Shown: piece by piece, positions 9,941 through 42,597 of the stretch
Layout: every line of letters starts with the position of its first letter
How positions within the stretch are numbered: the first letter of the stretch is position 1
Origin: Pseudomonadota bacterium
GTDB lineage: Bacteria; Pseudomonadota; Alphaproteobacteria; Caedimonadales; UBA1908
Direction: 5' to 3'
Length of the DNA: 64,000 nt
Assembly (NCBI GenBank): GCA_020161545.1
Contig: JAIUNT010000004.1
Coordinates: 2,863 to 66,862, forward strand
Made by a program: the position numbers and the translations under genes
Notes under the pieces: generated by a model
Seen by the model: only the letters and a program-made list of their open reading frames with translations
What the model was told of the DNA's origin: nothing
Database searches by the model: none

Positions 9941-9963
9941 GGTGCGTGTCCTTCTCGAAAATA

Positions 9964-10606: not shown

Positions 10607-10771
10607 ATGGAAAAAAACATCTTTATGGCCCTGGGGCTTTGCGTTGCCCTTTTGTGTACGGGGTGCGGGCGAAGAGGTGATCCCCTGCCTGTGCCAGGAA
10701 CTGAGAAATCCTATCCCTTAACGTACCCTGCCCCCGATGAAGAAGAGCCCGAAGAGACGCCCTGCCCCTAA
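10607..10771 (+). CDS. 54-aa lipoprotein, LptM/YifL-like
   Basis: Too short for the ORF track. Reads MEKNIFMALGLCVALLCTGCGRRGDPLPVPGTEKSYPLTYPAPDEEEPEETPCP. Lipobox L-C-T-G-C is followed by G.+G.L..P, as in E. coli YifL (LTGCGLKGPLYFP). Confidence 0.5.
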   Translation: MEKNIFMALGLCVALLCTGCGRRGDPLPVPGTEKSYPLTYPAPDEEEPEETPCP

Positions 10772-10846
10772 GGGCGCGTACGAGCGTCTTGTGCATGGGG
10801 GGGTGCCTGGCTTACTGTAGAGGAAGCAAGGACATGGAAAAATATA

Positions 10847-16941: not shown

Positions 16942-17016
16942 GGGCGCATAGCTCAGCGGGAGAGCGCTACGTTGACATCGTAGAGGTCGCTGGTTCAATC
17001 CCAGTTGCGCCCACCA
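16942..17016 (+). tRNA. tRNA-Val (anticodon GAC)
   Basis: Hand-folded cloverleaf. Acceptor gggcgca/tgcgccc; D arm gctc-agcggga-gagc; anticodon stem ctacg/cgtag with loop ttGACat; T arm gctgg-ttcaatc-ccagt; encoded CCA. Confidence 0.9.
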
Positions 17017-21444: not shown

Positions 21445-21476
21445 AAAGCCCTGGGTTTGTCCCGGGGCTTTGTTGG
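21445..21476 (+). terminator. rho-independent terminator of rpoD
   Basis: Hairpin aaagccctggg-tttgt-cccggggcttt followed by tgttgg. Confidence 0.6.
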
Positions 21477-21477
21477 C

Positions 21478-21844
21478 ATAGGCCCCGAACGAGACACCGC
21501 TGCGGCTAAGGCCTTAAAAATGGCAGCAATATGGCTGCCCTTGAAGTCTTCACTAAAGACCTTCCTCAGGAAGAAAAGGTTGAGATCAGACACAACAAGT
21601 ACAGGAACAACCTCATGGAACAGGACCATAGGTTCATCAAGAAACCCACGCGGCCTATGTTGGGATTCAAGAATTTCTTTTCAGCTAAAGCCATGCTTTC
21701 TGACATCGAGAACATTCGCATGATTCAAAAAGGACAGATTCTGGGACAAAAGCGTCTCAATCTGCTTTCAACAATTTTGGGGCTCTAATGGCGTAGTGTA
21801 TCCGACGCACAGTCATAGCTTCCACTCACACATGCGACAAAACC
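21478..21844 (+). mobile_element. truncated IS6-family element (3' third of the transposase plus terminal inverted repeat)
   Basis: ORF 21531..21788 reads ...VEIRHNKYRNNLMEQDHRFIKKPTRPMLGFKNFFSAKAMLSDIENIRMIQKGQ. This is collinear with the IS26 Tnp26 C-terminus (VEHRQIKYRNNVIECDHGKLKR...LGFKSMKTAYATIKGIEVMRALRKGQ). The sequence acatgcgacaaaacc, ending at 21844, is the reverse complement of an IS6-type IR (GGTTTTGTCGCATGT; compare GGTTCTGTTGCAAAGT of IS257). The N-terminal two-thirds and the left IR are missing. Confidence 0.7.
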
Positions 21845-21969
21845 AAGCTCATAGCGCCATGTGTTTCTTTTGGAGGAGCTCTACTCTAAGCGCGCGAACG
21901 AGTGGGAAGAGTCTGGTATCGCAGTTTGCCTACAGATACCAGACCTGCTTGTGAGATGGGTTTTATAAC

Positions 21970-22257
21970 CTACTTTTTATTTTTCTTTGCGTCGGCGATC
22001 AATACATCCCATTGTCCCATGCCTGAACCGTACTTCATAAACTTTTGGCCCAAGTCGTTGATGTTTGCAAATCCCTTGTGTGACCACTCATTTTTGAGAG
22101 CCTCCAGCTTTTCCACATCTCCATTGTCAAAGGCCTCGTAAAACTGACTTCGAAACTCAAACCAAGGGTCTGGTTGTTCTGAATGGGTTGCGTCCGTACT
22201 TGAGAAAACGCACGCAGGAGTGAGTGCACAAAGCATTGCTGTAAGAAGGACTTTCAT
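21970..22257 (-). CDS. small secreted hypothetical protein
   Basis: Signal peptide MKVLLTAMLCALTPACVFS. It lies in a lower-GC patch. No family recognised. Confidence 0.45.
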   Translation of the reverse strand: MKVLLTAMLCALTPACVFSSTDATHSEQPDPWFEFRSQFYEAFDNGDVEKLEALKNEWSHKGFANINDLGQKFMKYGSGMGQWDVLIADAKKNKK

Positions 22258-22870
22258 TATTTTACCTTTCCGTGGTTGGATAATTGCAGGCTATGAAATT
22301 ACATCTCTAAATGGTTAAAAAAAATTAAAAAAGACGAATTTTTGAACCACTGGCGCAAAAATCAGGGTCTATTCCAACAAAGGTACCAAAATCACTACAA
22401 GGAATTCTCTTCTCTTAAACTCGGTCGGCATGCGCATTTCTAAGCTGTTTGATGCGATCTGCCGGGAAGTATCGGTAGAATGCAGTGCAACCAATTTTGG
22501 GCTGAACAATGACATCTCCGACAAAAGGATAGTTTTCAGTATCCTTGAGCATGGCCTCAGCATTTGTTATATATTTTGTTCACTCATGTCTTTGGCTCTA
22601 CCTCCTCTGCGGCCCCGTTTATTGGCGGCGGCAACCGTTGTATCGATATTCTGAGTAAGAACCTTCAATGCATTTTTTCTTTCATTGATATGACCAACAA
22701 TTTTAATCGTCTGGGCCAGGAATCGGTGTACGTAAAATGGCACGCATTTCTTCACGTATCACAAAAAGCGAATGGGAACACCCAGTCAACTGGCGTTTCT
22801 CGCTCGATAAAAGTCGCGCTGCCAATGATGCCGTTGTCGAAGCCATGGATCGAATGGAACTACCGAACCT

Positions 22871-22973
22871 CTATAGCTAAAGCACTTTAATTTCGGGACA
22901 GGATGTGAGGCAAGCGACGTGTATAGGTATACACGAGCGACGCATCCCGAAATTATAAGGGGTTGGCTATATG
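22871..22973. repeat. MITE-like palindromic repeat, copy C (inverted relative to A/B)
   Basis: The reverse complement reads atatagccaaccccttataatttcggga...tcccgaaattaaagtgctttagctatag. It has the same termini as copies A/B (tatagccaacccctt... / ...aa[at]gcttt..agc.ata). Nested inverted repeats are tttcggga/tcccgaaa and cgtgtata/tatacacg. Confidence 0.55.
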
Positions 22974-23140
22974 GTCGGAATAATGACGTGCTTCACACAA
23001 TGAGTGACGGTCAGAAATGTGAGGTGTGCGGCGAAAGCCTGCACAAAAGCAGCTCCTTCAAATATTTTGGGCAGGGACAGGGCGGCTCTTCCGATACCTA
23101 TGTTGGGACGGACCCCTTTTTGTATGAAACAAACACTCAC

Positions 23141-24514
23141 TCAGTCATCTGTTCTCAGGCGTCCCGATTGCTTGAGCTCATTCTCCGCCATATTACGGAT
23201 GTCGCTGGCGCGCAGGCGAGCTTCTTTAGATTTGAGGGACTTAAGCGCGCGCCCCGCCTGATCATAGGCGGCTTGGTACTGCTCCACGCACACGGCTTCT
23301 TCAGCTAAGCACAGGGCTGCCATGGCGGTGTTGTGCTGCTTTCCGTAAGCCACCGCCAAAAAGCGCCAAGCAGAGGGGTTTTCGGGCTCCAGGATCAAGG
23401 ATTTCTCCAGGTGCTTCTGGGCGGCTGGGTAATGGTGAGAAGCGCCTTCTAACATGGCCTGGGCGCACAGCATGCGCAAGATCGCGTCTTTGGGACGCAG
23501 GGATACGGCCTGCCCGTAGGCATGGACGGCTTGCTCAATTTGGCCGCTTTCAAAGGCGATTTGTCCCTCCAGGTCCCAGTATGTCGCGTCACGGGGATGG
23601 GCACTTGTGAGGGTCTGGGCAAGGCCCAGTGCCTCTTTCCCGCGTCCGAGTAAAAAGAGGGCGGTTGCACGCATGAAACGCCCTTTGTCTGAATCGTCAC
23701 GGGCGTAGGTGCGCAGGGTTGTTTCGGGTGGATCAATAAAGGCATGAAGCTTCATGCGCATGCGCTCAAAATTCTCATCAAAACTGGGAGGAAGGGCGCC
23801 GTCTGGATGTTCGATGGTTGCCCGCTCAAGAAGGGCCACACGGTCCTGGGACAAGGGGTGCGAGCGGCTGTAGGGGTCTTGCTGGGCACTTGAGAGAAGT
23901 TCTTGACTGGCCAGCACCTTCATGAAGGATTGGAGCCCTTCCACGGGCCAATGGAGACGGTTCAAAAACCGAACTGCCGCCTGGTCCGCAGACGCCTCTT
24001 GGCCCCGGGAGTAGTGCATCATGGCGTTTTCAGCCATTTGCATGCCGCCCGTCAGGATTCCGGCGCCCGCATCCCCACCGCCTGCCGCAATGGCTGCCCC
24101 GCCCAAAAGGGCGGTTGCCATGGCAATGGCCGTGGCCTTTTTCATCATTTCCTCACGCCGGGCGATGTGTCCTGCGGCTATGTGACCCGTTTCGTGGGCC
24201 AAAACACCAATGAGTTCACGCGCATTTTTAGCGCGCAAGATGAGGCCAGTGTTCACAAAAATGCTGTAACGGGTGGTGGCAAAGGCATTGAGTTCAGGGT
24301 CTAGGATGACGTAGAGATGCATTTTTTCCGGATCAAGGCCAGCTGCCTCAAAAATTGGGGCGGCAAAATCGTGGAGGGCGCCCTCCACCTGGCTGTCACG
24401 GATGAGAGATCCGGTTTTGAGGCCTCTGGCATGTGTTGGGGCGGCCCCCCATAGGAGCACCGCCGCCAAAAAGGCACTTGTGTAACGCGCTAGTCGAGCA
24501 ACCTTTTCCACCAT
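23141..24514 (-). CDS. M48-family zinc metalloprotease with TPR domain (BepA-like)
   Basis: Signal peptide, HETGH zinc motif (LAHETGHIAAGH), and a C-terminal TPR-like region. Confidence 0.85.
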   Translation of the reverse strand: MVEKVARLARYTSAFLAAVLLWGAAPTHARGLKTGSLIRDSQVEGALHDFAAPIFEAAGLDPEKMHLYVILDPELNAFATTRYSIFVNTGLILRAKNARELIGVLAHETGHIAAGHIARREEMMKKATAIAMATALLGGAAIAAGGGDAGAGILTGGMQMAENAMMHYSRGQEASADQAAVRFLNRLHWPVEGLQSFMKVLASQELLSSAQQDPYSRSHPLSQDRVALLERATIEHPDGALPPSFDENFERMRMKLHAFIDPPETTLRTYARDDSDKGRFMRATALFLLGRGKEALGLAQTLTSAHPRDATYWDLEGQIAFESGQIEQAVHAYGQAVSLRPKDAILRMLCAQAMLEGASHHYPAAQKHLEKSLILEPENPSAWRFLAVAYGKQHNTAMAALCLAEEAVCVEQYQAAYDQAGRALKSLKSKEARLRASDIRNMAENELKQSGRLRTDD

Positions 24515-26712
24515 GTTTTTTCCTTGTCTTGTTCTTCTCGTGCCTGGGCGTCTTCATGGAAGACAGGAGAGTTGGGGTCAAAGGAGGCCGCAATGGTTGT
24601 GCTTGGGAAGGCGGGCCCTGAATCTTGGGAGGCCAAAACCGAGGACTGGGTTGTCTCTTGCCCTTCAGACGCCGCTCCACCCTGGTCAGGTGTGTCTTGG
24701 CGGCTCTTATCCCTATTGCGACGGTTGGCGCGCCTGCGCATACGGCGCTTGCGGGACTCGGAAGGCGATTGAGAGGCGTCTGTCCCGTCCTGTGTCACCT
24801 GAGAGGTGTCAGCGCTTTCTGTCTCAGCTTTCTTCGGTGCAGGCTCAGGGCGTGGAGCATCTTCACGGGGCATGTCTTGGCGCTCGCGGGGTTCTCTGTC
24901 ACCTGGGCCCTTACTGCGATCACGCCTACGTTTGTTACCGCGCTCCGGGCGGGGCTCCTTAGGCTCACGGGGTTGAGGCTTTGCTTCCTTGGGCTCCTCA
25001 CGTTCCTCACGCTTTTGAGGTGCGGGCTCTTCCTTTGGCGCAACCTCAAGGGCGCCAGTGGGGGAGGGCACCAATACCGAGACAGAGCATGCATGGGACT
25101 GGGGTCCTGCTTCTTCAAAGACAACGCGAATGCCATGGCGTGTCTCCACATCCAAAAGGGCATGGCGCTTTTGGTTCATGACATAAAGAAGCACCTCGTG
25201 GGGGAGCTTCAATGCCAGGGTGGCGCCTGGATTGCGCAGACCCGCGTCCTCCAAAATGCGCAGGGCGCTCAGTGCCAGAGACTCCGTTGAGCGAATGTAG
25301 CCCGTTGCCTGACAGTGTGGGCAAGGGTGAGCGCTTGTCTCCAAAAGGCTTGGTGCTAAGCGTTGTCTGGACATCTCCATCAGACCAAAGGGGCTGATGC
25401 GTCCCATTTGAATGCGCGCCCGGTCATCACGGAACGCTTCGCGCAGGCGCCTTTCCACGGCCGCAACGTTGCGTGGTTCGTCCATATCGATGAAGTCGAT
25501 GACGATGAGGCCCGCCAAATCACGCAGGCGTACCTGTCTTGCAATTTCCGTGGCAGCCTCAAGGTTGGTCTTGGTGGCCGTTTCCTCAATGTGGCGCTCG
25601 CGCGTGGCGCGCCCAGAGTTAATGTCAATGGATACAAGAGCTTCCGTTGGGTGAAGCACAATGGATCCACCCGATGGAAGGCGCACCTCCGCCTCATACA
25701 TATCGTCAATTTGCTTTTCCACCCCGTATTCATGGAAGAGGAGGGCACGGTCACTTTTATAGCGCTGAACACGCTTGCTGTGGCTGGGCATCAAAGACTT
25801 CATGAAGTCCTTGGCGGTTTTATAGCCCTCTTCACCGCTGACAAGCACTTGCTCAACGTCCTTGGAGTAAAGGTCCCGCACGGCACGCTTGACGATGTCG
25901 TCTTCGCTGTGGACCAGGCTTGGGGCAATGGAGGTAATGGTCTTCTCGCGAATGCTGTCCCACAGGCGCATGAGATATTGACCGTCACGCTTGAGCTCGG
26001 CGCGTGTGCGCTCACGCCCTGCGGTGCGGATAATGAGCCCCATGCCATCGGGCACATTAAAAGCTTCAAGGATCTGGCGCAGCCGCTTGCGATCAGCTGG
26101 ATTCGAAATCTTGCGTGAAATCCCACCGCTGCGGGGAGAGTTGGGCATGAGCACACAGTAACGACCAGCCAAAGACAAATAAGTCGTGAGCGCCGCACCC
26201 TTGTTGCCACGCTCTTCCTTCACCACCTGCACAAGGATGATTTGGTTTTTCTGGACCACTTCCTGGATTTTATAGCGGCGGTGCAAAGAGGGGCGTTTGA
26301 CGGTATCTTCTTCCTCATCGTCAGATGGGGGCAGATCTCCGCCAAGGGATGACACACCTTCGTCATCGGAAGGCGCTGTGTGTGCGGCCTTGTCCTCATC
26401 GTCCTCGTCAAGGACATCGGACGGGGCGGCAAGCTCAGCTTTTAAAGCTTCGCGGTCCGCAACGGGAATACGAAAGTAATCGGGATGGATTTCACCAAAG
26501 GCCAAAAAGCCGTGGCGCCCCCCGCCATAATCCACGAATGCCGCCTGGAGGGACGGCTCAACGCGCATGATTTTCGCGAGGTAAATATTACCCTTAACGG
26601 TTTCCTTTGTGGAGCTCTTGAATTCATAATCAACAAGCAGCCCCTTCTCATCAAGCAACGCAACCCGTGTTTCTTCGGGATGCACCGCATCGATTAACAT
26701 TTTCTTTGACAT
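24490..26712 (-). CDS. rne: ribonuclease E
   Basis: N-terminal MLIDAVHPEETRVALL..., an S1 domain with an acidic insert, and the catalytic core (SIVLHPTEALVSIDINSGRAT; GLIVIDFIDM). The C-terminal half is an Arg/Pro/Glu-rich low-complexity scaffold. Confidence 0.95.
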   Translation of the reverse strand: MSKKMLIDAVHPEETRVALLDEKGLLVDYEFKSSTKETVKGNIYLAKIMRVEPSLQAAFVDYGGGRHGFLAFGEIHPDYFRIPVADREALKAELAAPSDVLDEDDEDKAAHTAPSDDEGVSSLGGDLPPSDDEEEDTVKRPSLHRRYKIQEVVQKNQIILVQVVKEERGNKGAALTTYLSLAGRYCVLMPNSPRSGGISRKISNPADRKRLRQILEAFNVPDGMGLIIRTAGRERTRAELKRDGQYLMRLWDSIREKTITSIAPSLVHSEDDIVKRAVRDLYSKDVEQVLVSGEEGYKTAKDFMKSLMPSHSKRVQRYKSDRALLFHEYGVEKQIDDMYEAEVRLPSGGSIVLHPTEALVSIDINSGRATRERHIEETATKTNLEAATEIARQVRLRDLAGLIVIDFIDMDEPRNVAAVERRLREAFRDDRARIQMGRISPFGLMEMSRQRLAPSLLETSAHPCPHCQATGYIRSTESLALSALRILEDAGLRNPGATLALKLPHEVLLYVMNQKRHALLDVETRHGIRVVFEEAGPQSHACSVSVLVPSPTGALEVAPKEEPAPQKREEREEPKEAKPQPREPKEPRPERGNKRRRDRSKGPGDREPRERQDMPREDAPRPEPAPKKAETESADTSQVTQDGTDASQSPSESRKRRMRRRANRRNRDKSRQDTPDQGGAASEGQETTQSSVLASQDSGPAFPSTTIAASFDPNSPVFHEDAQAREEQDKEKTWWKRLLD

Positions 26713-27074: not shown

Positions 27075-28121
27075 TTAAGCGGTATCGCTGTTGAAAATGT
27101 GAAGACTGACCTGGTCATCATCATGGGTAAAGGGGTGCACCTTGAGCCATGAGGTCCACCCAAGGGTTGTCTTGGCCCCTATTTTTGTTTTTTCCACGTC
27201 GCTGGCGCGCATAACAAGGCGTATATCAAAGCTATGTTCGGTCCCAAGATAAAAGCGGATCAGCTCGCACAGTGCCGTGAAGGCTCTTCCGCCGTCGGGC
27301 AGAAACGCCCGAAAACGTTTGTCATCAAGAGGGCCCAGTTGCACACTGATGCGACTACGTGTGTCCCAGAACTTATCCCCGATGGAGGCGTCCTCTCCTA
27401 GGGTTTGAAAACGCCCCGCGCGCCCAATGCAGGTTTGCTCTTCCGGGGGGATATTAAGCCACTGTCCACAAAAGGGCGTGACACTCACGGGGACATTGAA
27501 ATAGTGGGAGAGAAAAATCTCAAGACCAGATGTTGAGCGGGGCGATTTCCACAGAAGGCCCGCGTAGTATAAAAGACCGCGATCGGGCACGCTCATGCGA
27601 TTTCTAAAAGCGTCCCCGCCGATACCTAAAAATGAAAAAAGAATCTGGGCAAAGGCCGTTTTATCAGGGGGCTGCGTTGCTAGACCTACCCAGTATTTTT
27701 TACGGATACGGTGGAAAATAGACAAAAGGCGATGGTTGAAGATGTCGAGGAAATCACGAAAGGCTGTGTCGCCAGAGCGTACGCGCTCCATGAGAAGCTC
27801 AGAAAAAGGCATGGGTAGGGGGCCGTTCGGGCCCGCAAGTCCTAAAAAGTTGATACTCATTTGACAGGGGTATTGGCGGTCCTTACTTAAGGGCGGTGTG
27901 AGGGAGAAAAGGTCGCTGGGAGGATAGGAGTGCGACACGCGCGCGCTAATGGACAAGGCCTCATTCTCGGGAACAGCATCTCGCCCAAGCTCAGTCGCCT
28001 TCGGAAAGGCAAGCTCAACCAGCTTCACCGCCTGGTGAAATTCAAAATAATAACTGGTCGCAAACAGCTCCTCAATTACACAAGGACGCGGTTTCCGGCT
28101 GTGGGCTTCCATGTTTTCCAC
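27075..28121 (-). CDS. tssG: type VI secretion system baseplate subunit TssG
   Basis: 348 aa. Contains YYFEFHQAVKLVE (canonical F.FFQAVRLLE), INFLGLAGPNGPLPMPFSELL, and FLDIFNHRLLSIFHRI, the hallmark TssG (ImpH/VasB) blocks. It overlaps tssF by 46 nt. An ATG at 28112 is an alternative start. Confidence 0.85.
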   Translation of the reverse strand: MENMEAHSRKPRPCVIEELFATSYYFEFHQAVKLVELAFPKATELGRDAVPENEALSISARVSHSYPPSDLFSLTPPLSKDRQYPCQMSINFLGLAGPNGPLPMPFSELLMERVRSGDTAFRDFLDIFNHRLLSIFHRIRKKYWVGLATQPPDKTAFAQILFSFLGIGGDAFRNRMSVPDRGLLYYAGLLWKSPRSTSGLEIFLSHYFNVPVSVTPFCGQWLNIPPEEQTCIGRAGRFQTLGEDASIGDKFWDTRSRISVQLGPLDDKRFRAFLPDGGRAFTALCELIRFYLGTEHSFDIRLVMRASDVEKTKIGAKTTLGWTSWLKVHPFTHDDDQVSLHIFNSDTA

Positions 28122-29929
28122 GTTCCTTTATAACGATTATTAAGCACTTCCAACTGGGTAAAGGTATTGACCGAGGCAAAAAGGGAGAAGAAATGATTCA
28201 ATACAGAGGCAAAAACAAAAGCGCCTATATCGTGATACTCGTCCTGACCAAAGGTCAGGGTAATTTTAGTGCCCTGGGCAAATCCGCGCCACGCGTCCAC
28301 CCCAAATCGGCGCGTGACAAGTGTGGTCGACATGTCTGTAATGGCATCAAGTTCAGGAATTGTGCGCTCACGTTCAATGTTTGCATAAAGGCGAATGACC
28401 TCTTTAAGGGCGCGCAGGGCCCCCTCTCCCCCTGAAAGGGCAAGGTGGTTTAGGCTCAGTTGCGAAATGAGGCGCCACTGGGTCTGTCCGTCCCTGGGGG
28501 GATAAATTTGCTTTCTGGGGCGATCAAGGACAAAAATTCGTGTGACGGGAATTTTATCCTCCGCGTGTAGCTGTCCGCCGGAGGGGATTTGCTCAGCGAG
28601 ATTTCTGTTGGTGCACAGGCTCCTGGCAAAGATCGTATGGGTTACGGGTTTGAGGGGCGTGAAATCAAAATCCACAAAGGACAGATGCATATCTGTTCCT
28701 GTCATGCCCTGGCGATCTGACTCCGTGCGCCGGGCGTGCCAAAAAGATTTATGCCCTTTTTCAGATAGCTGGTGGTTATAGCTAAAGTAAGGCATGAATT
28801 TTTCGACCTCTTTTTCTTGATCAATGGCTGCACTGACCTCAAGAATAGAGTGAATTTCCGTGGTTTTTTCGGCCTTAAGATCGGGGATCAAACGGTATTC
28901 AACGCTGCGATGATCCAGGCGAATGGGCTCAGTGATCTTATGGAAAAGGTTAATGATGGGGGCGCAGTGAAGCAGAAAGTTCATGGCGCTGACGTCACGC
29001 ACATTTAAGGGAACTTCCTCACAAAAAGCAAAGTAAAGATCAATTTCCGCCGCGTCTTGGGACAAAGATGGGTGGACAACGTCCATGAAGAAGAACTTCT
29101 CAGGATAATGGAAGTATTCCATGAGGAGTCTATAACCTGGGTGCGCATGCTCCGGGAATGGCAGAATGGCTTCGTCTTGCTCAAAACCGACGGGGCGCAC
29201 ACTTGAGGCGGGAATATTTTGGACAAGGGGACCAACAGTTGGCGCTGCTCCTTGAAGGACCACCTTCACGTCTTGTGCAAAAATGCCCTCATAAAGCGCA
29301 TTTTTCACCAAAGGGTTGCCCGCAATATGAAAACGCAGCTTTGCGAGGCCCATGTCTTTAAAGGTGCCCGTGTGGGATTTAAGGCGAATACGCAAGGTGC
29401 GTGAGGACCCAAGAGCCGCAGCCAAGGCGGTATCGAGGGTGCTTGTTTCCAGTAGGGTGGCGTCCAGAACACTCACGGGCGCAAGTTCAAGGTCATAGCC
29501 CGTGCGAAAGGAACACACCTCACCCGTTGCAGCGCGGGAGAACACCTTTGCGTGCTTGGGCACCGTCAGGGGAGAGGTAATCTTGCCCTGGTTTTCGGGA
29601 AGTTCAAACTGCGCAATGGCAAAGGAGGGGATGGGGGCGACAAATTGTGGGTACAGGACCCCTAAGAGCGCTTCCGTAAAACGCGGATACTGATCATCCG
29701 TATCATGCTGTAGCCTTGCTGTAAGATAGGCAAAGGACTCCAGAAGCCGCTCCACATGGGGGTCGCTTGATTCAGCCGCTCCCACATCAAGACGTCTTGC
29801 GATTTTTGGGTACTCTTGGGCAAAGCGTGCGCCAGAGCGTCGCAAATAGGTGAGTTCTCGCTGATAATAATCAAAGAAAGGGTCTAATTTTTGCACCGTT
29901 TCCTCCCTACTTTTCCAATAGTTTGCCAT
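28076..29929 (-). CDS. tssF: type VI secretion system baseplate subunit TssF
   Basis: 617 aa. Contains FDYYQRELTYLRRSGARFAQEYPKIARRL, DPHVERLLESFAYLTARLQ, and ALLGVLYPQFVAPIPS, the hallmark TssF (ImpG/VasA) N-terminal blocks. A GTG at 29896 preceded by GGGAGG is an alternative start. Confidence 0.9.
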   Translation of the reverse strand: MANYWKSREETVQKLDPFFDYYQRELTYLRRSGARFAQEYPKIARRLDVGAAESSDPHVERLLESFAYLTARLQHDTDDQYPRFTEALLGVLYPQFVAPIPSFAIAQFELPENQGKITSPLTVPKHAKVFSRAATGEVCSFRTGYDLELAPVSVLDATLLETSTLDTALAAALGSSRTLRIRLKSHTGTFKDMGLAKLRFHIAGNPLVKNALYEGIFAQDVKVVLQGAAPTVGPLVQNIPASSVRPVGFEQDEAILPFPEHAHPGYRLLMEYFHYPEKFFFMDVVHPSLSQDAAEIDLYFAFCEEVPLNVRDVSAMNFLLHCAPIINLFHKITEPIRLDHRSVEYRLIPDLKAEKTTEIHSILEVSAAIDQEKEVEKFMPYFSYNHQLSEKGHKSFWHARRTESDRQGMTGTDMHLSFVDFDFTPLKPVTHTIFARSLCTNRNLAEQIPSGGQLHAEDKIPVTRIFVLDRPRKQIYPPRDGQTQWRLISQLSLNHLALSGGEGALRALKEVIRLYANIERERTIPELDAITDMSTTLVTRRFGVDAWRGFAQGTKITLTFGQDEYHDIGAFVFASVLNHFFSLFASVNTFTQLEVLNNRYKGTWKTWKPTAGNRVLV

Positions 29930-30026: not shown

Positions 30027-31088
30027 TTAGAAGCTGGACCGTGAAAGAAAGTCCAAGGCTGTTTGAGGGTCCCAAGCTTTGTCCTCAAGGCACTGCTTTA
30101 AAAGAGATTCGAGTCCCATACATACGGCGTGTTTGGAGACTTCTTCACCAATGCGCAAAGAAGCATAAGCCTTGTCTTCCAGAAAATCTGTCACAATGCG
30201 TCTTTGGTCATCCCACAAGGCAAGGTGCAGCTTTTGTGCAGGGGTGATGTGGCCGAGAATGAGGTTTTGAGCCAGAAAAAGACTTGCCTGTCTTGCTTTG
30301 TTTCTGTTGTCGCAATAAATGACGCCTAAGGAAAAGGTGAAGCCGTCTCTTCCCGCCTGAAATTCAATACCATCCCTTGCAAAACAGTGGCTTCGTTCAA
30401 AGGATATCCCCGCGTCTTCAAGGCACTTATGTGTGTAGAGTATATTGGCTTGAGCATAAGGGCGATTGGTGAGGCCCACAATTTGGTAGCCCGCATCACT
30501 CAGCCGCGTGAGGTGGTTTTGAATACCATCTTCCATGGTTTCGCGTGTCTGGAAGAACAAAGGGTTTTTAAAATGATCCACATGGGGGCTGCCCAATACA
30601 CGGCTGATATTGTTTAATTCAGACGTCTCAAGGGCGGGTGTTTTAAAAAGCTTCCCTTTTTTGCGTGCGAGCTCTTCAAAACTCCCATACCCACTTCGGG
30701 AGACGGCTTGTTGCACAAGGCTGGTATTCTCTAATAAGCTTGTTCTCCAAAAACGGACCATCCCTTCAAAAAAGAGGGTTTCGTCCAAGTCCACAAAAAG
30801 CACCTTCAACTCTGCATCTTCGGGCGTTTGCGCGAGCGTCACATTTGCTGCTTCTTCCACAGAAAATGCAACGGACACGAGCGCAGGTGAGGTGTGGGTC
30901 CCGTGTTCTGCTACAATGGCGCTTAGGGTGTCCTCACAAATGGATTTCTTCAGCGACGGATCGACGTGGTCCAGTATTGATCTTTGATAGTTTCTCAAGA
31001 GCTGTCTGGCGTGTGAATCATCGCACTGGGTGCCATAAACAGCCGTATGCCCAAAGGTCATTAAGAGTATGATGATAAGTGCTCTCAT
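30027..31088 (-). CDS. secreted HAD-superfamily-like protein
   Basis: Signal peptide MRALIIILLMTFGHTAVYG. HAD motif I is VLFVDLDETLFF (DxDxT), motif II-like is QIVGLTNR, and motif IV-like is LALWDDQ. Confidence 0.6.
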   Translation of the reverse strand: MRALIIILLMTFGHTAVYGTQCDDSHARQLLRNYQRSILDHVDPSLKKSICEDTLSAIVAEHGTHTSPALVSVAFSVEEAANVTLAQTPEDAELKVLFVDLDETLFFEGMVRFWRTSLLENTSLVQQAVSRSGYGSFEELARKKGKLFKTPALETSELNNISRVLGSPHVDHFKNPLFFQTRETMEDGIQNHLTRLSDAGYQIVGLTNRPYAQANILYTHKCLEDAGISFERSHCFARDGIEFQAGRDGFTFSLGVIYCDNRNKARQASLFLAQNLILGHITPAQKLHLALWDDQRRIVTDFLEDKAYASLRIGEEVSKHAVCMGLESLLKQCLEDKAWDPQTALDFLSRSSF

Positions 31089-31266
31089 GGGGTGAACCTT
31101 ACGTTAAAAGACATCTCCCTCTACCTTAATTTGTACACAGGGACAATAGAGACTGCACTCAACAGGCTTGTTTTAATCGAAGACGTATTTCCTTAATCGT
31201 CAAAAAATAATTGACTCTTAGAAAATAATAAAGCGTATAATTGCTGTGATAACACGGGAGGAAGTC

Positions 31267-32388
31267 ATGATAAGAAACATTATAATTCAATTGTCTATTT
31301 TGTTTGTAACAGGACCTTTATGGGCAAGTGCCATGGGCGGGGACACTTTACCGACTGATATGGAAGAGCCCAGTGATCACACTTTACAGCGCACAATTGC
31401 CGACGTTCTGGCGCGCGATCCCCATGCGGATGTCAGCGACCTTCTGCCGCGTGAGGAATTCTCACAGACAGCTCCTTCTTCCGTCCCCATTGTCGTGACC
31501 TTCCAAACAACCGTAAGCGATGAGGAGTTCGCAAGAGCCCTTGATCGTCAGCTGAATATGGAGCCGAGCCGCCATCAAGAAGAGGGCGATGCAGGCCTTG
31601 CGCGCGTGCTTCAAGAGCTTGAATCACCCGCCATGCCGACACCCCTGGTTATACCTGCCGCGGCACATGTAAGTTCTCAAGAAGCCCAGAGTGATGAGGT
31701 GCTGGCCAGGCATCTTGAGGGTACCTTAAACGGGGAACTAAGTGGTGGTACACAAGAAGAGGGTGATGCGGCTCTTGCGCGCAAGCTTCAAGAGCTTGAA
31801 GCGCCACTCATGCTGGAGATGCGATTAGAGGAGGCTGATCAAGCGCCTTACGCGGCCATGCGCCGTGACTTTCTTGCCATTCAACACGGTCAGGACGTCC
31901 ATGCCATGACGCGGGCTTTTGCAAAGGCCCATTACGGATTTCTTAAAAGCATTGAAGAGAAGTATTTTGGTTACACAAAGGATTTGGACGCGCTACGCAT
32001 CGCACATGGGCGTGATCAGTTTCTTGAGGACTGTAAAACAGATGCAAAAGCCGCACATTTAGCGTCCGATGCCTTTAAGGCAAAGACCGCTCTTATGACG
32101 GGACTTCTTGAGGGGAAGAAGGGTTTGTGGAACCCTGGGGCTATTGACGTAGACGGGGAAACGGGCCTGTCTCTTCGCGAAGTCTTTGCCCGGGTTTATC
32201 TTTTTGCCCTCAGGCGCGATGAGGCGCAAGCGGCAGCCTTCTTTGCGCGCCATGGTGAGACCCGTCCACATTTAGAAAATTTTGGATTTTTCTGTGACAA
32301 GCTCGCTGAAAACGTGAGCGAAGGTGGTGGGTGTCACGCGGGCATCACGGGGCGTTTGGTGTACACTTTTGCGTACTTTTTAACATAA
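31267..32388 (+). CDS. secreted hypothetical protein with four acidic-LAR.L helix motifs
   Basis: The ATG at 31267 is preceded by GGGAGG. Signal peptide MIRNIIIQLSILFVTGPLWASA. The motifs are SDEEFARALDRQLNME, EEGDAGLARVLQELES, SDEVLARHLEGTLNGE and EEGDAALARKLQELEA. Confidence 0.6.
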   Translation: MIRNIIIQLSILFVTGPLWASAMGGDTLPTDMEEPSDHTLQRTIADVLARDPHADVSDLLPREEFSQTAPSSVPIVVTFQTTVSDEEFARALDRQLNMEPSRHQEEGDAGLARVLQELESPAMPTPLVIPAAAHVSSQEAQSDEVLARHLEGTLNGELSGGTQEEGDAALARKLQELEAPLMLEMRLEEADQAPYAAMRRDFLAIQHGQDVHAMTRAFAKAHYGFLKSIEEKYFGYTKDLDALRIAHGRDQFLEDCKTDAKAAHLASDAFKAKTALMTGLLEGKKGLWNPGAIDVDGETGLSLREVFARVYLFALRRDEAQAAAFFARHGETRPHLENFGFFCDKLAENVSEGGGCHAGITGRLVYTFAYFLT

Positions 32389-37178: not shown

Positions 37179-37255
37179 TGGCGCGCCCTGCAGGATTCGA
37201 ACCTGCGACACTCGGCTTAGAAGGCCGATGCTCTATCCAGCTGAGCTAAGGGCGC
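37179..37255 (-). tRNA. tRNA-Arg (anticodon TCT)
   Basis: Hand-folded on the minus strand. Acceptor gcgccct/agggcgc; D arm gctc-agctggata-gagc; anticodon stem tcggc/gccga with loop ctTCTaa; T arm gcagg-ttcgaat-cctgc; encoded CCA. Confidence 0.9.
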
Positions 37256-37354
37256 GTGAGGCATACTCTATCCCAAACATGCCTCTTGGTAAAGACTCAT
37301 GCACAAGGTGCACAGCATTTTAAAATCTTTCTGCCCGTGTGTTTCGGTGATGTT

Positions 37355-38836
37355 TTATTTTGGGACCCCCGCGTGGTCTTCTATTGCACGCCTAAGCGCT
37401 TGAAGCCTTTGAATTGGATCAACAATGTCTGCAATGCGTTCCAGGTGTGTATTATCTATACCTTCTAATACACTTTCTAATATACCTCCTAAAATAGTGG
37501 AAGGCATCCTGATTTCACCCTTAAGAAGTCGAACGTAGATATTCACATTTTGCGCCGTAATGTGCTGGGCGCGCAAAGCATGTGCGCGCGCGCTAGGCTC
37601 AAAACCCGCCGCGGCAATGAGGGCAAGCCGCTCGTCAGACACGTCTTCGGCGGCTTCTAAAAGTTCGTCAATCGCCAACAAGCCCCGAGAAAGCCGAACG
37701 TAGATATTCACATTTTGCGCCGTAATCTGAGCAGCGCGCAAGGCAAACAAGCGATTTGAAGGCTCAAACCTTGCTGTGGCAATGAGGGCAATCCGCTCGT
37801 CGGGCAGGCCTTTGGCCACTTTTAAAACCCATTCTTTTTGGCATCCATTTTTAAGAAGTAGGGCGTAGTCCTTGGCATTTTGCGCCGTAATCTGATCAGC
37901 GCGTAAAGCACACGCACGATCGTCTGGCTCAAAGCCCGCCGCGGCAATGAAGGCAAGTCTCTCATCAGAAACGCCTTCGGCGGCTTCTAAGAGTTTGTCA
38001 GGTTGATACATATTCATAAGAAGTCGAACGTAGTCCTTGGCATTTTGCGCCGTAATCTGATCAGCGCGCAAAGCACACACACGATCTTTTGGCTCAAAAC
38101 CCGCCGCGGCAATGAAAGCAAGCCTTTCGAGGTGCACATGTTCTGTGGCCTGAAGAAAGGTGTCTGTGTCCGAGACACCGTTAAGAAGTACGGCGTAGCT
38201 TTTCGCGTTATCCTTTGTGATGCGACTATCTGTGAAGACCTTCGCCATCACCTCCTGGGGAAACTGGGCCCCTACAATAATGTTCACCCTTTCATCGGAA
38301 GCTTGTATTGATGCATCAAGGATTTCTTGCACATAACGAGGATTGGTGACACGCTCAAAAATCCTGACATACCGAGAGACATTGTGCTCATGAATAAACG
38401 GGGCCTTCAAAACCGCGATGTGTGCTGCCCCCACAAAACCAGCGTTTGCGATGAGTATGAGCTTTTCAAGCGTCACCTCACGGGCGGCTCGCAAAAGTTC
38501 GACTACATTGAGGGCATCTTTGGCAAGTTTCACAAGAGGTGGTGTGTTTTTTTCATCAATAAAATCATAGATTTGTATCAATTCATCTAAATCGTATTCT
38601 AGATAACTATTTTTTTTGAAGAGCAGCTTCTCTTGATTTGTATCACAGGATTCCATTTCCGCAGGACCCCTGCAGACGGCCTCGGGTGTATCATTGTTTG
38701 TATCCACTATTCCAACGGGTACACTTGACGCGGCATGGGATCTATCCGGGTCATTGACATCAAAGGGCACTGCTTGGGTACAAGTATTCCATAGGCATGT
38801 TGCCGCCAAAATCTGCATGGGGCATTTGAAGTACAT
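37355..38836 (-). CDS. tandem-repeat protein (about seven 55-aa repeats), probable signal peptide
   Basis: The block ERLAFIAAAGFEP..R..ALRA..ITAQN...YV.LL recurs at aa 237, 292, 347 and 402 (exact 55-aa period). Degenerate copies start at about aa 124, 182 and 466. Confidence 0.7.
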   Translation of the reverse strand: MYFKCPMQILAATCLWNTCTQAVPFDVNDPDRSHAASSVPVGIVDTNNDTPEAVCRGPAEMESCDTNQEKLLFKKNSYLEYDLDELIQIYDFIDEKNTPPLVKLAKDALNVVELLRAAREVTLEKLILIANAGFVGAAHIAVLKAPFIHEHNVSRYVRIFERVTNPRYVQEILDASIQASDERVNIIVGAQFPQEVMAKVFTDSRITKDNAKSYAVLLNGVSDTDTFLQATEHVHLERLAFIAAAGFEPKDRVCALRADQITAQNAKDYVRLLMNMYQPDKLLEAAEGVSDERLAFIAAAGFEPDDRACALRADQITAQNAKDYALLLKNGCQKEWVLKVAKGLPDERIALIATARFEPSNRLFALRAAQITAQNVNIYVRLSRGLLAIDELLEAAEDVSDERLALIAAAGFEPSARAHALRAQHITAQNVNIYVRLLKGEIRMPSTILGGILESVLEGIDNTHLERIADIVDPIQRLQALRRAIEDHAGVPK

Positions 38837-38970
38837 CGCGCGTTCCTGAGTTAAAAAATAGCTCTAAGTCATTCCTATGAGATAAAATATAAGAAGTCAA
38901 ACACCCTGTCTGCCGCTTGCCATTTATATGGTTAAGGATTTATAAAATAGCTCTTTTTTGCTGAGTGCGG

Positions 38971-41742
38971 TTACTCCCATATACTGATGCGGTCGGTCTT
39001 TCGTTGAAAGGCGGACGCAAAAGATTTTGTGCGTGCCCGCAAAAGGATCAGGCGTCCCTCAGGGGTGCGGGTGTACACAAGGTCTGCTTGCCCCACGTAT
39101 CGCTGCCACCGCTTTACAAAAAACGTCGCGTGCTCTTTGTTTTGACCCATGAGGGCGGGGACGCTGTGGTAATTTGTGCGCAGGAAAGTTCCTATTTTGC
39201 TTGTATGAACTAGAAGGTAGCGCGGGCTTTCAGGGGGGCTCAGGAGCTCTTGCATGGCGTCTAAAAAGACTTTGCGCTCGAGGGCGGTTGCGCCCTCAAG
39301 GCCGCAGTAAAGAACGCCCATTTTGTCTTTCATGACCTGAACGCGCAGATTTTTGGGATTTGTTTTCACAAGATCCATGTTCTGTAAGGTTTCAAGCACC
39401 GCCCAGGCTGCCTGCTTCATGGCGCCTTCAAGGGTCCCGTTACGCACAAAAAGAAAGAGGGCTTTAAGGAGCTTAGGAAGGGCCAGAACACCTGCAACAC
39501 CCAAGGATAGGGCAAGAAAGGCCAAGGGATTTTTTGACCCGCGCCCGGCGCCCAAAATGTGACTTGCCCAACTGCCTCCCCAAATCAGCGCGTTTAGGCA
39601 AACGGCCTTGAGTGTGTGGGCGTAAACAAACCCCATGGGTGCGTAGGTGGCCTCAAGTTTTTCACGCATGTTTGGCTTGGGGCTTGCCCCCTCCAAGGCG
39701 CGGTGCCACATCTGGGATAAAGTATCTCGTTTCCTGGCCCTCATAAGCGTTGCCTCATTGAGACGTGCAACGCCATTTTTCGACCAGTTTACCTTGGACA
39801 AATCAAGACGCTTGAATCCATTTTCAATGAGATAGGGCCGTCCATAAGACACGCCTTCAAAGGCACGAAAGCGTCGGCGCAGAAGGGTGACGTCCTCGCC
39901 AATATGCTCCTGAATTTCATCGAATGTATTGATTTCTTTGGTGGTGCCCCGCTCACCGAAAAAGGAATCCTCTTGCCTGTCAAGGGGCACAGGATCAATG
40001 GTGGCCAGGTGCCAAATGTGGGACGTTTTATGGGGGCCCTTGGCATGGGTACGAATGGCCCGCCCGCGCATTTGGTTGGAGAGCATATAGGACCCCACGT
40101 GGCTGGCAAGGATCAAGGTATTGAGACTTGGCGCGTCCCATCCTTCGCCCAAAAGCGCTTGGGTGCCCACCAGCGCCTGGATGGCACCCGCTTGGAAAAC
40201 CTCCGTGATCAGCTGCACAATTTTTTGTTTCCCAACCCCGCGCATTTGAACGTTTAAATACGCTCCGTCGTGGGGGGTGGGGGTGCATATCAAATGACTT
40301 GGATCAAGGCCCGCCTCGGCTGCAATGCGCTCAAGTACAGGGCGTGCGCCCCTTGGTATCAACACAAGGGATCCCGTGAGGAGGCCTAGCTTGAGGTCCG
40401 CAAGACCCAGGCGGCGCAAGGATTCAAAGATGGGCACAACGCCAATTTTTTGAGGGGGTGAGAGATTTTCCGGATGTCGCGGCAGTTCATCTGCGCGGAT
40501 GTAGTCAGCCAGAATCACCATGCGCAAGTCTTGCCCGAGGGCACCGTATTCGGCCCGTGTGATCTGGGCGATGCTCTCAAGCTTGCCAAGGCTGGCCGCC
40601 AGCATTTTGCCGATCTTGCGCGCGTGGTCAATGGTAACCTGGTGGCGCTCGGTAGCGCCAATGCGGGAGAGATCCTGTCGGATGGGCTCAAGAACATCTT
40701 TGTGCGCCTCGAAATGTGACGCATGTGTGTAAAGGACGTTTGTGAGGAGGGTTTCCAACCACTGGGGCGTCATCGGGGGTGGGGCCTCTTTGCCTGTGGC
40801 CAGGATTTTGGCCACGTCCGGGTGTGGCTTGCGCCCGCTGGCGTTGAGAAAGATGACCATGGCAGAGAAAAATGCGCTGTCCCCTAAAATGTCTTCCACG
40901 TGTGTGAGGGGTGTGCGGACCCAGGGATGGGTGGCAAGGACCTCCACAAAAGAGTTATTCCTCTTAAGATTTTGAAGAAAATGAGAGATTTCTTGTTTGA
41001 ACTGTGTGAGTTTTTCGCGCTCCTTACCCACAGGCAAAGAAAAGTGGATATAGTCTTGGTGGGGGCATAGATCCCCCGCCTTCACAAGCTCCGGCACGCT
41101 GATCTCGGCGTCGATGGGGCCGCAAAGCGCCTCATACTTTTGCCACTGGGCGTACTCCACATCATAGGGAGGCGTCGCGGTGAGGGAGATAATACCTGGT
41201 TTTTGAAGGGCCGCCTCAAGTTTTGTGAGCGCTTTCCACCACTCGTTGCGCAGATGATGGGCCTCATCCAAGATGAGCGTGCCAATATTTTGGGCGATGA
41301 GGCCTTTGATAATCTCTTTTTCCCGTGCGGGATTTGTTTTGCCAGATGCGCTCTTTTCTTCGTCTTCTGGGTCAGCCTCCTGCGCGTCTAGCGCTTCCCC
41401 TGCCCCGCAAAAAGCCGCGTGTAGCGCTTGATAGGTGATGACCGTCAAGGGCCTTGGGCGCCGTGCGTCTGTGGAAATCCAATCGAGGTGAGGCGCGCCC
41501 CGTGGCAAAAACAGGGACTGCAGGCGCTCTATCCACTGATTGCGGATGGTGAGTGTGGGCGCTAAAATAAGGGTCGGCTTTGCGCGCCTACGCATGAGCT
41601 CCAACCCTAAAACCGTTTTGCCCGATCCAGGGGCTGCCACAATATTGAGACGCCTTTTTGTGAGGTTATCGCCGTGCTCCTCAAGGACGCGCGCTTGATA
41701 ATCTCGCCATTGTCCTTGAAAGGTCATGTGTGAAAAGGTCAT
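38971..41742 (-). CDS. SF2 (ResIII/DEAH-type) helicase with hydrophobic segments and unassigned C-terminal domain
   Basis: 923 aa. Motif I is AAPGSGKT, motif II is LILDEAHH, motif III is SLTATP, and motifs V/VI are LLGEGWDAPSLNTLILAS...SNQMRGRAIR. About 330 aa are inserted between the two RecA-like halves. Two hydrophobic stretches (AVCLNALIWGGSWASHILGAG and LAFLALSLGVAGVLALPKLLKALFLFV) precede a roughly 150-aa C-terminal domain. Confidence 0.85.
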   Translation of the reverse strand: MTFSHMTFQGQWRDYQARVLEEHGDNLTKRRLNIVAAPGSGKTVLGLELMRRRAKPTLILAPTLTIRNQWIERLQSLFLPRGAPHLDWISTDARRPRPLTVITYQALHAAFCGAGEALDAQEADPEDEEKSASGKTNPAREKEIIKGLIAQNIGTLILDEAHHLRNEWWKALTKLEAALQKPGIISLTATPPYDVEYAQWQKYEALCGPIDAEISVPELVKAGDLCPHQDYIHFSLPVGKEREKLTQFKQEISHFLQNLKRNNSFVEVLATHPWVRTPLTHVEDILGDSAFFSAMVIFLNASGRKPHPDVAKILATGKEAPPPMTPQWLETLLTNVLYTHASHFEAHKDVLEPIRQDLSRIGATERHQVTIDHARKIGKMLAASLGKLESIAQITRAEYGALGQDLRMVILADYIRADELPRHPENLSPPQKIGVVPIFESLRRLGLADLKLGLLTGSLVLIPRGARPVLERIAAEAGLDPSHLICTPTPHDGAYLNVQMRGVGKQKIVQLITEVFQAGAIQALVGTQALLGEGWDAPSLNTLILASHVGSYMLSNQMRGRAIRTHAKGPHKTSHIWHLATIDPVPLDRQEDSFFGERGTTKEINTFDEIQEHIGEDVTLLRRRFRAFEGVSYGRPYLIENGFKRLDLSKVNWSKNGVARLNEATLMRARKRDTLSQMWHRALEGASPKPNMREKLEATYAPMGFVYAHTLKAVCLNALIWGGSWASHILGAGRGSKNPLAFLALSLGVAGVLALPKLLKALFLFVRNGTLEGAMKQAAWAVLETLQNMDLVKTNPKNLRVQVMKDKMGVLYCGLEGATALERKVFLDAMQELLSPPESPRYLLVHTSKIGTFLRTNYHSVPALMGQNKEHATFFVKRWQRYVGQADLVYTRTPEGRLILLRARTKSFASAFQRKTDRISIWE

Positions 41743-41821
41743 GTAGTGGTACCAGGTTATGTGTGTAACAGATTATAGCGAAACCTTTATCTTTTAGGGA
41801 GAGATTGGGTATCCCTTGCGT

Positions 41822-42457
41822 TTATTGCCTCAAACGTTGAAGTGATTTTTCCAAATCCTCATACGACCAGGTCAGCATTTCTTGAAGCTTTGACCAGTCT
41901 TCTTCTCGTACCTCTTTCAGGGTATCTTGAAATTGATCACGCACGTTTGCGGCGTAGGCACGCCATAAAGTTGCGCGCTCATAATTTTTGGGTGTCCCAC
42001 CGTATAACAGGGCATAAACCTGAGCCATCATAAGTGCAATTTTATCAGGACTGCATTCCTCAGGGTTGCGCCGCGCGACCCACCATTTCAACTCTGCGGC
42101 CGCAAGCAGATGGGCTTCAAAAGTGTATGGGGATGTTTTTCTCATTTCTTCAAAGGCTGCAGTTAAAAGGGGCAAAACGGTTTCGTCATACACCTCTTTT
42201 GGTGTGTCTTGTGGTGCTTGCCCAAATGCCATAACTGCTTTCGCATAGAGGGGAAGGACGTCCTTAACATTTTGGATTCTATAGAGTTTTTCCAACATAG
42301 TCCCAAGGGATTCTTGTGCGCGTTCCAGATCGTTATGGTAATAAGCCCGCCACACGGTGATTTCGTTTGGCGCAATGTCGTCAAAGGCGCAAGCATAAAC
42401 ATTTTCAAGAAATGAAAGAGTTAACAACACTAAAACAGAGATTTTTCGCGAGATCAT
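41822..42457 (-). CDS. secreted helical hypothetical protein
   Basis: Signal peptide MISRKISVLVLLTLSFLENVYA. The ATG is preceded by AAAGGAG. No family recognised. Confidence 0.6.
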   Translation of the reverse strand: MISRKISVLVLLTLSFLENVYACAFDDIAPNEITVWRAYYHNDLERAQESLGTMLEKLYRIQNVKDVLPLYAKAVMAFGQAPQDTPKEVYDETVLPLLTAAFEEMRKTSPYTFEAHLLAAAELKWWVARRNPEECSPDKIALMMAQVYALLYGGTPKNYERATLWRAYAANVRDQFQDTLKEVREEDWSKLQEMLTWSYEDLEKSLQRLRQ

Positions 42458-42597
42458 ATTTTACTCCTTTCATGCGACTGAGGTGTGAGTCCGGGCGCTG
42501 TCACGCTGTGCACAGATCTGTTATCTAGGTGATCCTCAAGGACGCGTGCTTGAGAGTTTTGCCATTGCTCTTGAAATGAAAACTGTTTGAACATCAT
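42454..42597 (-). pseudogene. eroded copy of the helicase 5' end (47 codons), overlapping the start of the downstream gene
   Basis: Reads MMFKQFSFQEQWQNSQARVLEDHLDNRSVHSVTAPG..., versus MTFQGQWRDYQARVLEEHGDNLTKRRLNIVAAPGSGKT in the full helicase. The DNA is roughly two-thirds identical by eye (ctcaaggacgcg[t/c]gcttga...gccattg..cttgaaa). The stop TGA overlaps the ATG of the 211-aa gene (ATATGA). Confidence 0.55.

Follow-up and report, generated by a model that had tools for sequence, protein, structure and literature searches.

Two genes for baseplate wedge subunits of the T6SS, tssF and tssG, overlap on the minus strand of a 64-kb window, the window being the whole stretch of 64,000 nucleotides that was analysed. 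The longest open reading frame of tssF (28076..29929) encodes 617 aa and that of tssG (27075..28121) 348 aa; as originally predicted, both are full length and free of internal stops, and the hallmark motifs quoted for TssF and TssG are present in both. Profile searches likewise assign both products, over their full length and above curated cut-offs, to the proposed families. TssF matches Pfam PF05947 with 613 bits (cut-off 25, profile positions 4-608 of 608) and the TIGR03359 equivalog with 609 bits (cut-off 260, full length), and TssG matches PF06996 with 308 bits (cut-off 24.6, profile positions 4-304 of 304) and the TIGR03347 equivalog with 296 bits (cut-off 143). EAEC TssG (PDB 6GIY chain C) aligns to the window protein with E = 1e-15. 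Both genes carry a TssF or TssG annotation in GenBank, where the 606-aa record MCA0369723.1 is already named TssF.

The likely start of tssF is GTG 29896, giving 606 aa, because a Shine-Dalgarno-like GGGAGGA (29901..29907, minus strand, read from the sequence) lies 5 nt upstream of it and because this start agrees with the GenBank record and with orthologues. ATG 29929 has no Shine-Dalgarno-like site, and the shorter form is used by both the ENA gene call (locus L089) and PGAP. For tssG, ATG 28112 is the likely start, giving 345 aa. With these starts the end of tssF covers the beginning of tssG by 37 nt (28076..28112, minus strand), an overlap found identically in the called genes of five relatives (L001, L002, L003, L005 and L006); the 46 nt given in the original prediction holds for the longest frames only. 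Such an overlap suggests that the two genes may be expressed as one unit. Scanning for promoters and terminators near the pair returned counts no different from shuffled expectation.

Measured on the longest frames, gaps of 97 nt to the upstream ORF (30027-31088) and of 362 nt between tssG and rne downstream (24490-26712) bound the pair, both as first reported. The earlier statement that tssE normally sits directly upstream of tssF also holds, since, of 67 canonical loci with a tssE gene, 60 have it within 150 nt upstream. That the window contains no other T6SS gene was borne out by two kinds of search: Pfam scans found none among its ~55 ORFs of at least 90 aa, and custom-built HMMs for TssA, B, C, E, K, M, Hcp, VgrG and ClpV, applied to the six-frame translation with filters off, gave a best E of 0.43. 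For TssL, TssJ and PAAR, the search consisted of the Pfam scans of ORFs no shorter than 90 aa. The window thus shows no further core T6SS gene within 28 kb of the pair on one side or 34 kb on the other.

Stand-alone pairs in related genomes

The arrangement recurs well beyond this contig. ORFs of 88 loci were clustered and the cluster representatives labelled by Pfam, and a stand-alone overlapping tssF-tssG pair was found in at least 16 Holosporales-type relatives, that is, in every one examined (L001-L009, L012, L018, L027, L036, L038, L040 and L049, with no other T6SS gene within ~10 kb). These relatives include Ca. Caedibacter, Paracaedibacter, Odyssella and Finniella, and in each the pair sits in its own, different housekeeping context. 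Each of the remaining 70 loci retrieved has one or more additional core T6SS genes close by.

In a neighbour-joining tree of concatenated TssF and TssG (66 taxa, 932 columns), the window and the 16 other isolated loci are monophyletic with a bootstrap of 100/100, the window being nested inside the group. It groups with L001 and L002 (100/100), the former carrying a TssF 90% identical to that of the window, and shares the clade with Ca. Caedibacter acanthamoebae (49% identity), Ca. Paracaedibacter symbiosus (45%), Ca. Odyssella and Ca. Finniella. A comparison of synteny among relatives had been proposed together with the original prediction; besides the recurrence of the isolated pair, it reveals the gene order tssG-rne-M48 in the window, L001 and L088. 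Judged from these sequences, tssFG appears to have parted from tssE and the other T6SS genes only once, and the isolated pair to have been passed on stably throughout a deep clade.

Canonical clusters of the type tssE-tssF-tssG(-tssK), such as EAEC Sci-1 (6GIY, 6N38), share the full-length TssF and TssG architecture with the window but differ in gene context, as the window pair does not stand beside tssE, tssBC, hcp, clpV, vgrG, tssK or tssM. Two loci from Rhodospirillales MAGs are partly split: L023 resembles the window in having tssF-tssG without tssE, tssB, tssC or hcp in ~10 kb upstream, and for L013 the upstream sequence amounts to 105 nt, too short to judge the presence of these four genes. 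Unlike the window, both L013 and L023 have clpV and vgrG after tssG and fall outside the isolated clade.

Selection and the TssK-docking loops

Both genes are constrained as strongly as the neighbouring housekeeping genes. Against the closest relative, L088 (dS ~0.25), tssF has a dN/dS of 0.037 and tssG one of 0.054, and the values for rne (0.042), M48 (0.049) and rpoD (0.019) serve as comparison; the pattern against L001 is the same, and the estimates come from these two relatives only, because dS against L003, L005 and L007 is saturated. Purifying selection on both genes, which the original prediction had suggested looking for, is thus evident. In each of the six orthologue pairs checked, which span 45-98% identity, the frames are uninterrupted.

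TssG binds TssK trimers through two loops with hydrophobic plug residues, in EAEC M228, L236 and M242 in the first and L308, L319 and M325 in the second, of which L236, M242, L308 and L319 have been shown to plug into TssK (PMC6300606). In loop 1, window L241 (EAEC L236) is leucine in 15 of 15 isolated-clade TssG sequences, and window I247 (EAEC M242) is leucine or isoleucine in 14 of 15. EAEC M228 falls on a column that is not conserved (window R234), but in the nearby I232 column the residue is always leucine, isoleucine or methionine. The alignment to the EAEC chain ends before loop 2, whose positions were assigned by residue spacing; on that mapping, I314 is leucine, isoleucine or methionine across the isolated clade, L320 and W325 never vary, and L326 is either leucine or isoleucine. 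This pattern matches that of 51 canonical TssG sequences, and column entropies correlate between the isolated clade and canonical clusters (rho = 0.72 for TssF and 0.64 for TssG). Judging by alignment and spacing, the hydrophobic residues predicted to dock TssK are retained in window TssG, and both the loop positions and the site-wise conservation resemble those of EAEC Sci-1.

These data bear directly on the second of the three readings first offered, that the pair is all that is left of a vanished T6SS; the two genes would then be non-functional or decaying. The absence of any other T6SS gene from the 64 kb is compatible with it, as is the loss of the T6SS by Holospora among the Holosporales noted in a review. 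Decay is nevertheless contradicted by dN/dS values at the level of rne, M48 and rpoD, by the intact frames of all orthologue pairs, by the maintenance of the pair throughout a deep clade in which dS is saturated, and by the conserved TssK-docking residues, so that this reading is now highly unlikely. Similarly little credence is due to the idea that the higher-GC and apparently less reduced lineage formed by the window, GCA_013822015.1 and GCA_002337525.1 kept only a TssF-TssG wedge capable of binding TssK-like partners, while its sheath, tube or membrane complex disappeared or gave way to something else, so that the pair would work in a non-canonical apparatus.

Flanking ORFs and host lineage

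Two lineage-specific ORFs with N-termini resembling Sec signal peptides, at 30027-31088 and 31246-32388, lie beside tssF. The one nearer to tssF had been described as a Sec-signal, HAD-like gene, a description that stands for the Sec-like N-terminus and lacks Pfam or NCBIfam support as to HAD. A HAD-like identity is plausible, since four HAD motifs (D100xD102xT104, T207, K264 and D293-D294) are invariant in its three homologues. Structure prediction from the three-sequence alignment was unusable (mean pLDDT 34.7).

In the third of the original readings these secreted proteins were candidate non-canonical partners of a TssF-TssG wedge, which would then work independently of a T6SS. Both ORFs do adjoin tssF in the window and in L088, and the T6SS of Holosporales has been called "probably non-standard" in a review. 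However, L088 is the only relative to share this arrangement: the ORFs are absent beside tssFG in L001, in spite of its 90%-identical TssF, and in every other isolated locus, and only three homologues were found among 5.8 billion proteins. Their dN/dS values of 0.30 and 0.16, against 0.04-0.05 for tssFG, correspond to a 3-8 times faster evolution. TssF and TssG are cytoplasmic baseplate proteins, whereas the Sec-like N-termini imply that the flanking products would be exported. No gene family beyond TssF and TssG co-travels with the pair across the 18 isolated loci, leaving no third component common to them, and the TssK-binding loops and site-wise constraints match those of the canonical T6SS. 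A separate module of this kind is therefore very improbable indeed.

GC content is ~0.53 in the host and 0.36-0.43 across the remaining isolated loci, and the tssFG region, at 0.51-0.52, is close to the window mean of ~0.53. GCA_002337525.1 carries a TssF 65% identical to that of the window together with one of the nearest UvrA proteins outside the window's small clade; window UvrA itself is 67-69% identical to both Rhodospirillales and Nucleicultricaceae-labelled MAGs, evenly. What points to Holosporales as the order of the host is the T6SS gene tree and the arrangement of the pair. Close relatives bear the NCBI labels "Proteobacteria bacterium" and "Ca. Puniceispirillum sp.", and relatives of the ~53% GC lineage have been found in marine metagenomes. 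GCA_002337525.1 appears less reduced than classic endosymbionts.

Local GC, the shared tssG-rne-M48 order and the agreement between TssF and UvrA support vertical inheritance of tssFG, as far as sequence comparison can indicate. Least credible of all is a recent horizontal acquisition in which a foreign T6SS fragment landed next to rne by chance: T6SS clusters are often mobile and the contexts of tssF-tssG differ between genomes, but the GC of the region departs little from the window mean, the tssG-rne-M48 order is kept in three genomes, the TssFG tree places the window with GCA_002337525.1, which is also among the nearest by UvrA, and the isolated arrangement has a single origin at 100/100.

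Interpretation as a probable part of a dispersed T6SS

Very probably, the pair is one module of a dispersed T6SS such as has been reported from Holosporales-type alphaproteobacterial symbionts. The first of the original readings, a T6SS scattered round the chromosome, gains support from the recurrence of the pair, from the clade it belongs to and from the published state of the group. Midha et al. 2021 (PMC8163844) described a stand-alone [tssG-tssF] module within a dispersed T6SS with the same layout as in the window, and in Ca. Bodocaedibacter the dispersed modules are all transcribed (PMC8163844). As in the window, the dispersed systems of Ca. Bodocaedibacter vickermanii, Paracaedibacteraceae and Caedimonadaceae (PMC8163844) have an overlapping tssF-tssG that stands by itself between housekeeping genes and lacks an upstream tssE. 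Two differences deserve mention. The known dispersed systems comprise three or more other modules, whereas that of the window is known from tssF-tssG alone within the 64 kb read; and symbionts with dispersed systems have 36-43% GC, in contrast to ~53% in the window host, whose relatives look less reduced.

By analogy with the known cases, we infer that other T6SS modules would be present elsewhere in the source genome, and that TssF and TssG probably assemble as in solved T6SS baseplates. The overlapping genes would then be expressed as one unit and their products would form a (TssF)2-(TssG)1 heterotrimer, in which each of the two TssG loops would dock one TssK trimer. Together with TssK and TssE this heterotrimer would constitute a baseplate wedge. 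Six such wedges would assemble round the VgrG hub, the resulting structure would attach to the TssJLM membrane complex, and the attached baseplate would start polymerisation of the Hcp tube and the TssBC sheath.

The finding is ordinary in the sense that a stand-alone tssFG is the published normal layout of the Holosporales-type group. As a discovery it carries little weight: the genes are already annotated in GenBank, and the literature already gives a [tssG-tssF] locus standing by itself as a hallmark of the dispersed T6SS. What it adds, modestly, is the apparent single origin of the isolated pair and the reach of this arrangement into a sparsely sampled lineage of ~53% GC with less reduced-looking relatives, which could help to establish when the T6SS was scattered with respect to the adoption of life inside host cells.

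The tssF-tssG pair and the rest of the window

The two minus-strand ORFs assigned to tssF and tssG in the original prediction are confirmed by Pfam and NCBIfam equivalog matches above cut-off. The product of the longest tssF frame (28076-29929, 617 aa) matches T6SS_TssF end to end with 613 bits and TIGR03359 with 609 bits (cut-off 260), and that of the overlapping tssG frame (27075-28121, 348 aa) matches T6SS_TssG with 308 bits and TIGR03347 with 296 bits (cut-off 143). TssF is already annotated as such in GenBank (MCA0369723.1), and the predicted gaps of 97 nt between tssF and its upstream ORF and of 362 nt to rne are correct. Starts were refined using orthologue comparison and ribosome-binding sites. 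Translation of tssF most likely begins at GTG 29896 (606 aa), which is preceded by GGGAGGA 5 nt upstream and is also the start chosen by PGAP and by an ENA gene call. For tssG the likeliest start is ATG 28112, giving a 37-nt overlap that is identical in the related loci L001, L002, L003, L005 and L006.

Pfam scans of about 55 ORFs spanning the window returned, apart from tssF and tssG, no T6SS gene, only housekeeping families (trmD, ffh, trxB, dapD, rnhA, dnaG, rpoD, M48 peptidase, rne, aroK, xerD, M23 and M15 peptidases, rnhB, uvrA, ychF) and many family-less ORFs. As a check for small or miscalled genes, ORFs were clustered from 88 sequences (the window, 86 TssF loci and one annotated-plasmid locus), and HMMs were made from nine recurrent tssF-neighbour families with Pfam-confirmed representatives: gp25/TssE, Hcp, VipB/TssC, VipA/TssB, ClpV, VgrG, ImpA/TssA, VasE/TssK and IcmF/TssM. 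An unfiltered search of the six-frame translation gave no match in the window better than E = 0.43 for these nine, against scores of 400-780 bits for TssF and TssG. Both approaches bear out the claim that the pair stands without other T6SS genes in 64 kb.

The closest related locus, L088 (GCA_013822015.1), lacks three segments and is otherwise collinear with the window at 92-94% DNA identity. These segments (21454-23116, 37303-38967 and 41722-42519) each hold an unassigned ORF with a signal-peptide-like N-terminus (21970-22257; 37355-38836, 493 aa; 41822-42457), a pattern suggesting that secreted-protein genes were inserted or deleted in particular strains. Two tandem paralogue pairs (49893-51140 and 51407-53023, 415 and 538 aa, 50% identical; 59549-61087 and 61071-62726, 512 and 551 aa, 51% identical) have no Pfam match in any of their four ORFs; at least one member, 49893-51140, has a signal-peptide-like N-terminus, and the pairs are probably lineage-specific secreted protein families. 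At 24490-24514 rne shares 25 nt with the M48/TPR peptidase gene downstream of it, and the overlap has the same length in L001 and L088. A borderline Rfam match to 'ffh sRNA' (3745-3779, minus strand; 35.1 bits, just over the gathering score of 35) falls at the 5' end of ffh, and tRNA-Val(GAC) and tRNA-Arg(TCT) lie at 16942-17016 and 37179-37255.

Isolated pairs in relatives and the host lineage

Six relatives carry tssF-tssG alone, with other T6SS genes absent within about 10 kb and a different housekeeping neighbourhood in each: L088 (TssF 98% identical), L001 (90%, Logan SRR22250823), L002 (65%, GCA_002337525.1), L003 (52%, JGI metagenome), L005 (50%, Logan), which has a TLC ATP/ADP translocase gene at the same locus, and L006 (45%, Ca. 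Paracaedibacter symbiosus). Among the matches listed from GTDB species representatives, the isolated pair also occurs in Ca. Caedibacter acanthamoebae (49%), Caedibacter sp. 38-128, Ca. Odyssella sp., Holosporales bacterium UBA11393, Ca. Finniella inopinata and several Alphaproteobacteria/Proteobacteria MAGs. The other 70 loci (Acidobacteria, Pseudomonas, Azospirillum, Myxococcota and others) each have at least one further core T6SS gene nearby; tssE is present in 67, and in 60 of these no more than 150 nt separate it from the tssF that follows, in agreement with the predicted canonical order. In a neighbour-joining tree of concatenated TssF+TssG, with relatives taken from among the matches listed in the GTDB scan, the 17 isolated loci (window included) form one clade with bootstrap 100/100, and the window, L001 and L002 group at 100/100. 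This monophyly argues that tssFG became separated once, in what appears to be a single event inherited since.

Other arrangements were also seen. A Thiomargarita sp. MAG (L026, DYRG01000026.1) has a full-length tssF (9962-11782, 777 bits) with neither tssG nor any other T6SS gene across its 17-kb locus; left out of the tree, which required both proteins, it may represent an independent instance of a baseplate gene standing alone. In two Rhodospirillales MAGs (L013 and L023) clpV and vgrG follow tssF-tssG. In L023 the roughly 10 kb before tssF contain no tssE, tssB, tssC or hcp, so that its locus would be partly split while falling outside the isolated clade; the 105 nt of upstream sequence in L013 is too short to judge.

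The source MAG, in which the window lies on a 67,593-bp contig, is labelled 'Proteobacteria bacterium' at NCBI. UvrA places the organism in Alphaproteobacteria, with a few close relatives at 75-98% identity followed by even values of 67-69% to Rhodospirillales and Nucleicultricaceae-labelled MAGs, and GC is about 52-53% in the window, L001 and L088 against 36-43% in other isolated loci. Given these even identities and the GC gap, membership of Holosporales proper is held as likely, not more. Vertical inheritance of tssFG is favoured by GCA_002337525.1, which is near by TssF and, beyond the window's own clade, also among the nearest by UvrA. That genome, found in a Tara Oceans marine metagenome, carries carAB, LysR regulators, a PHB depolymerase and Tad-pilus parts; the sub-lineage that it forms with the window, L001 and L088 may be less tied to hosts than classic Holosporales are. 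The NCBI label of L088 (PNJU01000004.1), 'Candidatus Puniceispirillum sp.' (SAR116), may be wrong, since its TssF is nearly identical to that of the window, whose TssF+TssG falls inside a Holosporales-type clade.

Flanking genes, selection and TssK docking

The possibility that TssF-TssG forms a wedge with non-canonical partners, such as the flanking secreted proteins, is disfavoured. Both candidates, 30027-31088 upstream of tssF and the divergent 31246-32388, flank tssF in L088, but in L001 galU-, ugd- and pgm-type genes take their place. Their dN/dS values are 0.30 and 0.16, against 0.037 for tssF and 0.054 for tssG, and their N-termini resemble Sec signal peptides, in contrast to the cytoplasmic TssF and TssG. 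Across the isolated loci, moreover, the pair travels with no third gene family. Judged by sequence, the two ORFs look like ordinary fast-evolving secreted lineage proteins rather than dedicated partners. Neither has a Pfam or NCBIfam match. For 30027-31088, a set of 5.8 billion proteins yields just three homologues, namely its own record (MCA0369724.1, LCH26_01290), a copy in L088 at 83% and a fragment at 54%. Its description as HAD-like lacks a family match but agrees with four HAD-phosphatase motifs invariant in these three (D100xD102xT104, T207, K264, D293-D294), behind a signal-like N-terminal segment; its AlphaFold model (pLDDT 35) is unusable.

The values for tssF and tssG, obtained against L088 (dS about 0.25, unsaturated), lie in the housekeeping range (rne 0.042, M48 0.049, rpoD 0.019), as expected under purifying selection, and the ranking is unchanged against L001. 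Park et al. 2018 (PMC6300606) showed that two TssK trimers bind to a pair of loops in EAEC TssG, the contacts being M228, L236 and M242 in loop 1 and, in loop 2, L308, L319 and M325; binding is lost when these positions are changed to arginine. In the window TssG, aligned to the EAEC chain 6GIY_C at E = 1e-15, L241 and I247 correspond to L236 and M242 and are conserved as hydrophobic in the isolated clade and likewise in canonical clusters; M228 aligns to a non-conserved column (R234), with I232 in a hydrophobic column nearby. Loop 2, which falls where the EAEC chain no longer aligns and was therefore mapped by spacing, has I314, L320, W325 and L326 in conserved hydrophobic columns. Together with the site-wise conservation shared by isolated and canonical proteins (rho = 0.72 for TssF, 0.64 for TssG), these columns suggest that both proteins are still fit for a standard baseplate. 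The idea that the genes are the last survivors of a lost T6SS is rejected in view of this selection, the hydrophobic docking columns and the intact frames of all orthologues checked.

A probable dispersed secretion system

The remaining reading, a T6SS scattered around the chromosome, is supported by the isolated clade and by a published layout. In Ca. Bodocaedibacter, tssF/tssG (CPBP_00125/00126), tssE alone (CPBP_00258), vgrG (00353/00355), tssA (00937) and tssB, tssC and hcp (00985-00987) lie apart, with RNA-seq reads listed for each (Midha et al. 2021, PMC8163844). From clade membership, selection and this literature we infer that the source genome holds the other modules, and the window pair is very probably part of such a scattered T6SS. 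A T6SS is conserved across almost all sequenced Holosporineae, Holospora being the exception, and is regarded as the prime candidate for host interaction (2025 review, PMC11909080). Viewed against the published layout, the supposed orphan pair would belong, as a single module, to a type of dispersed T6SS that is already known.
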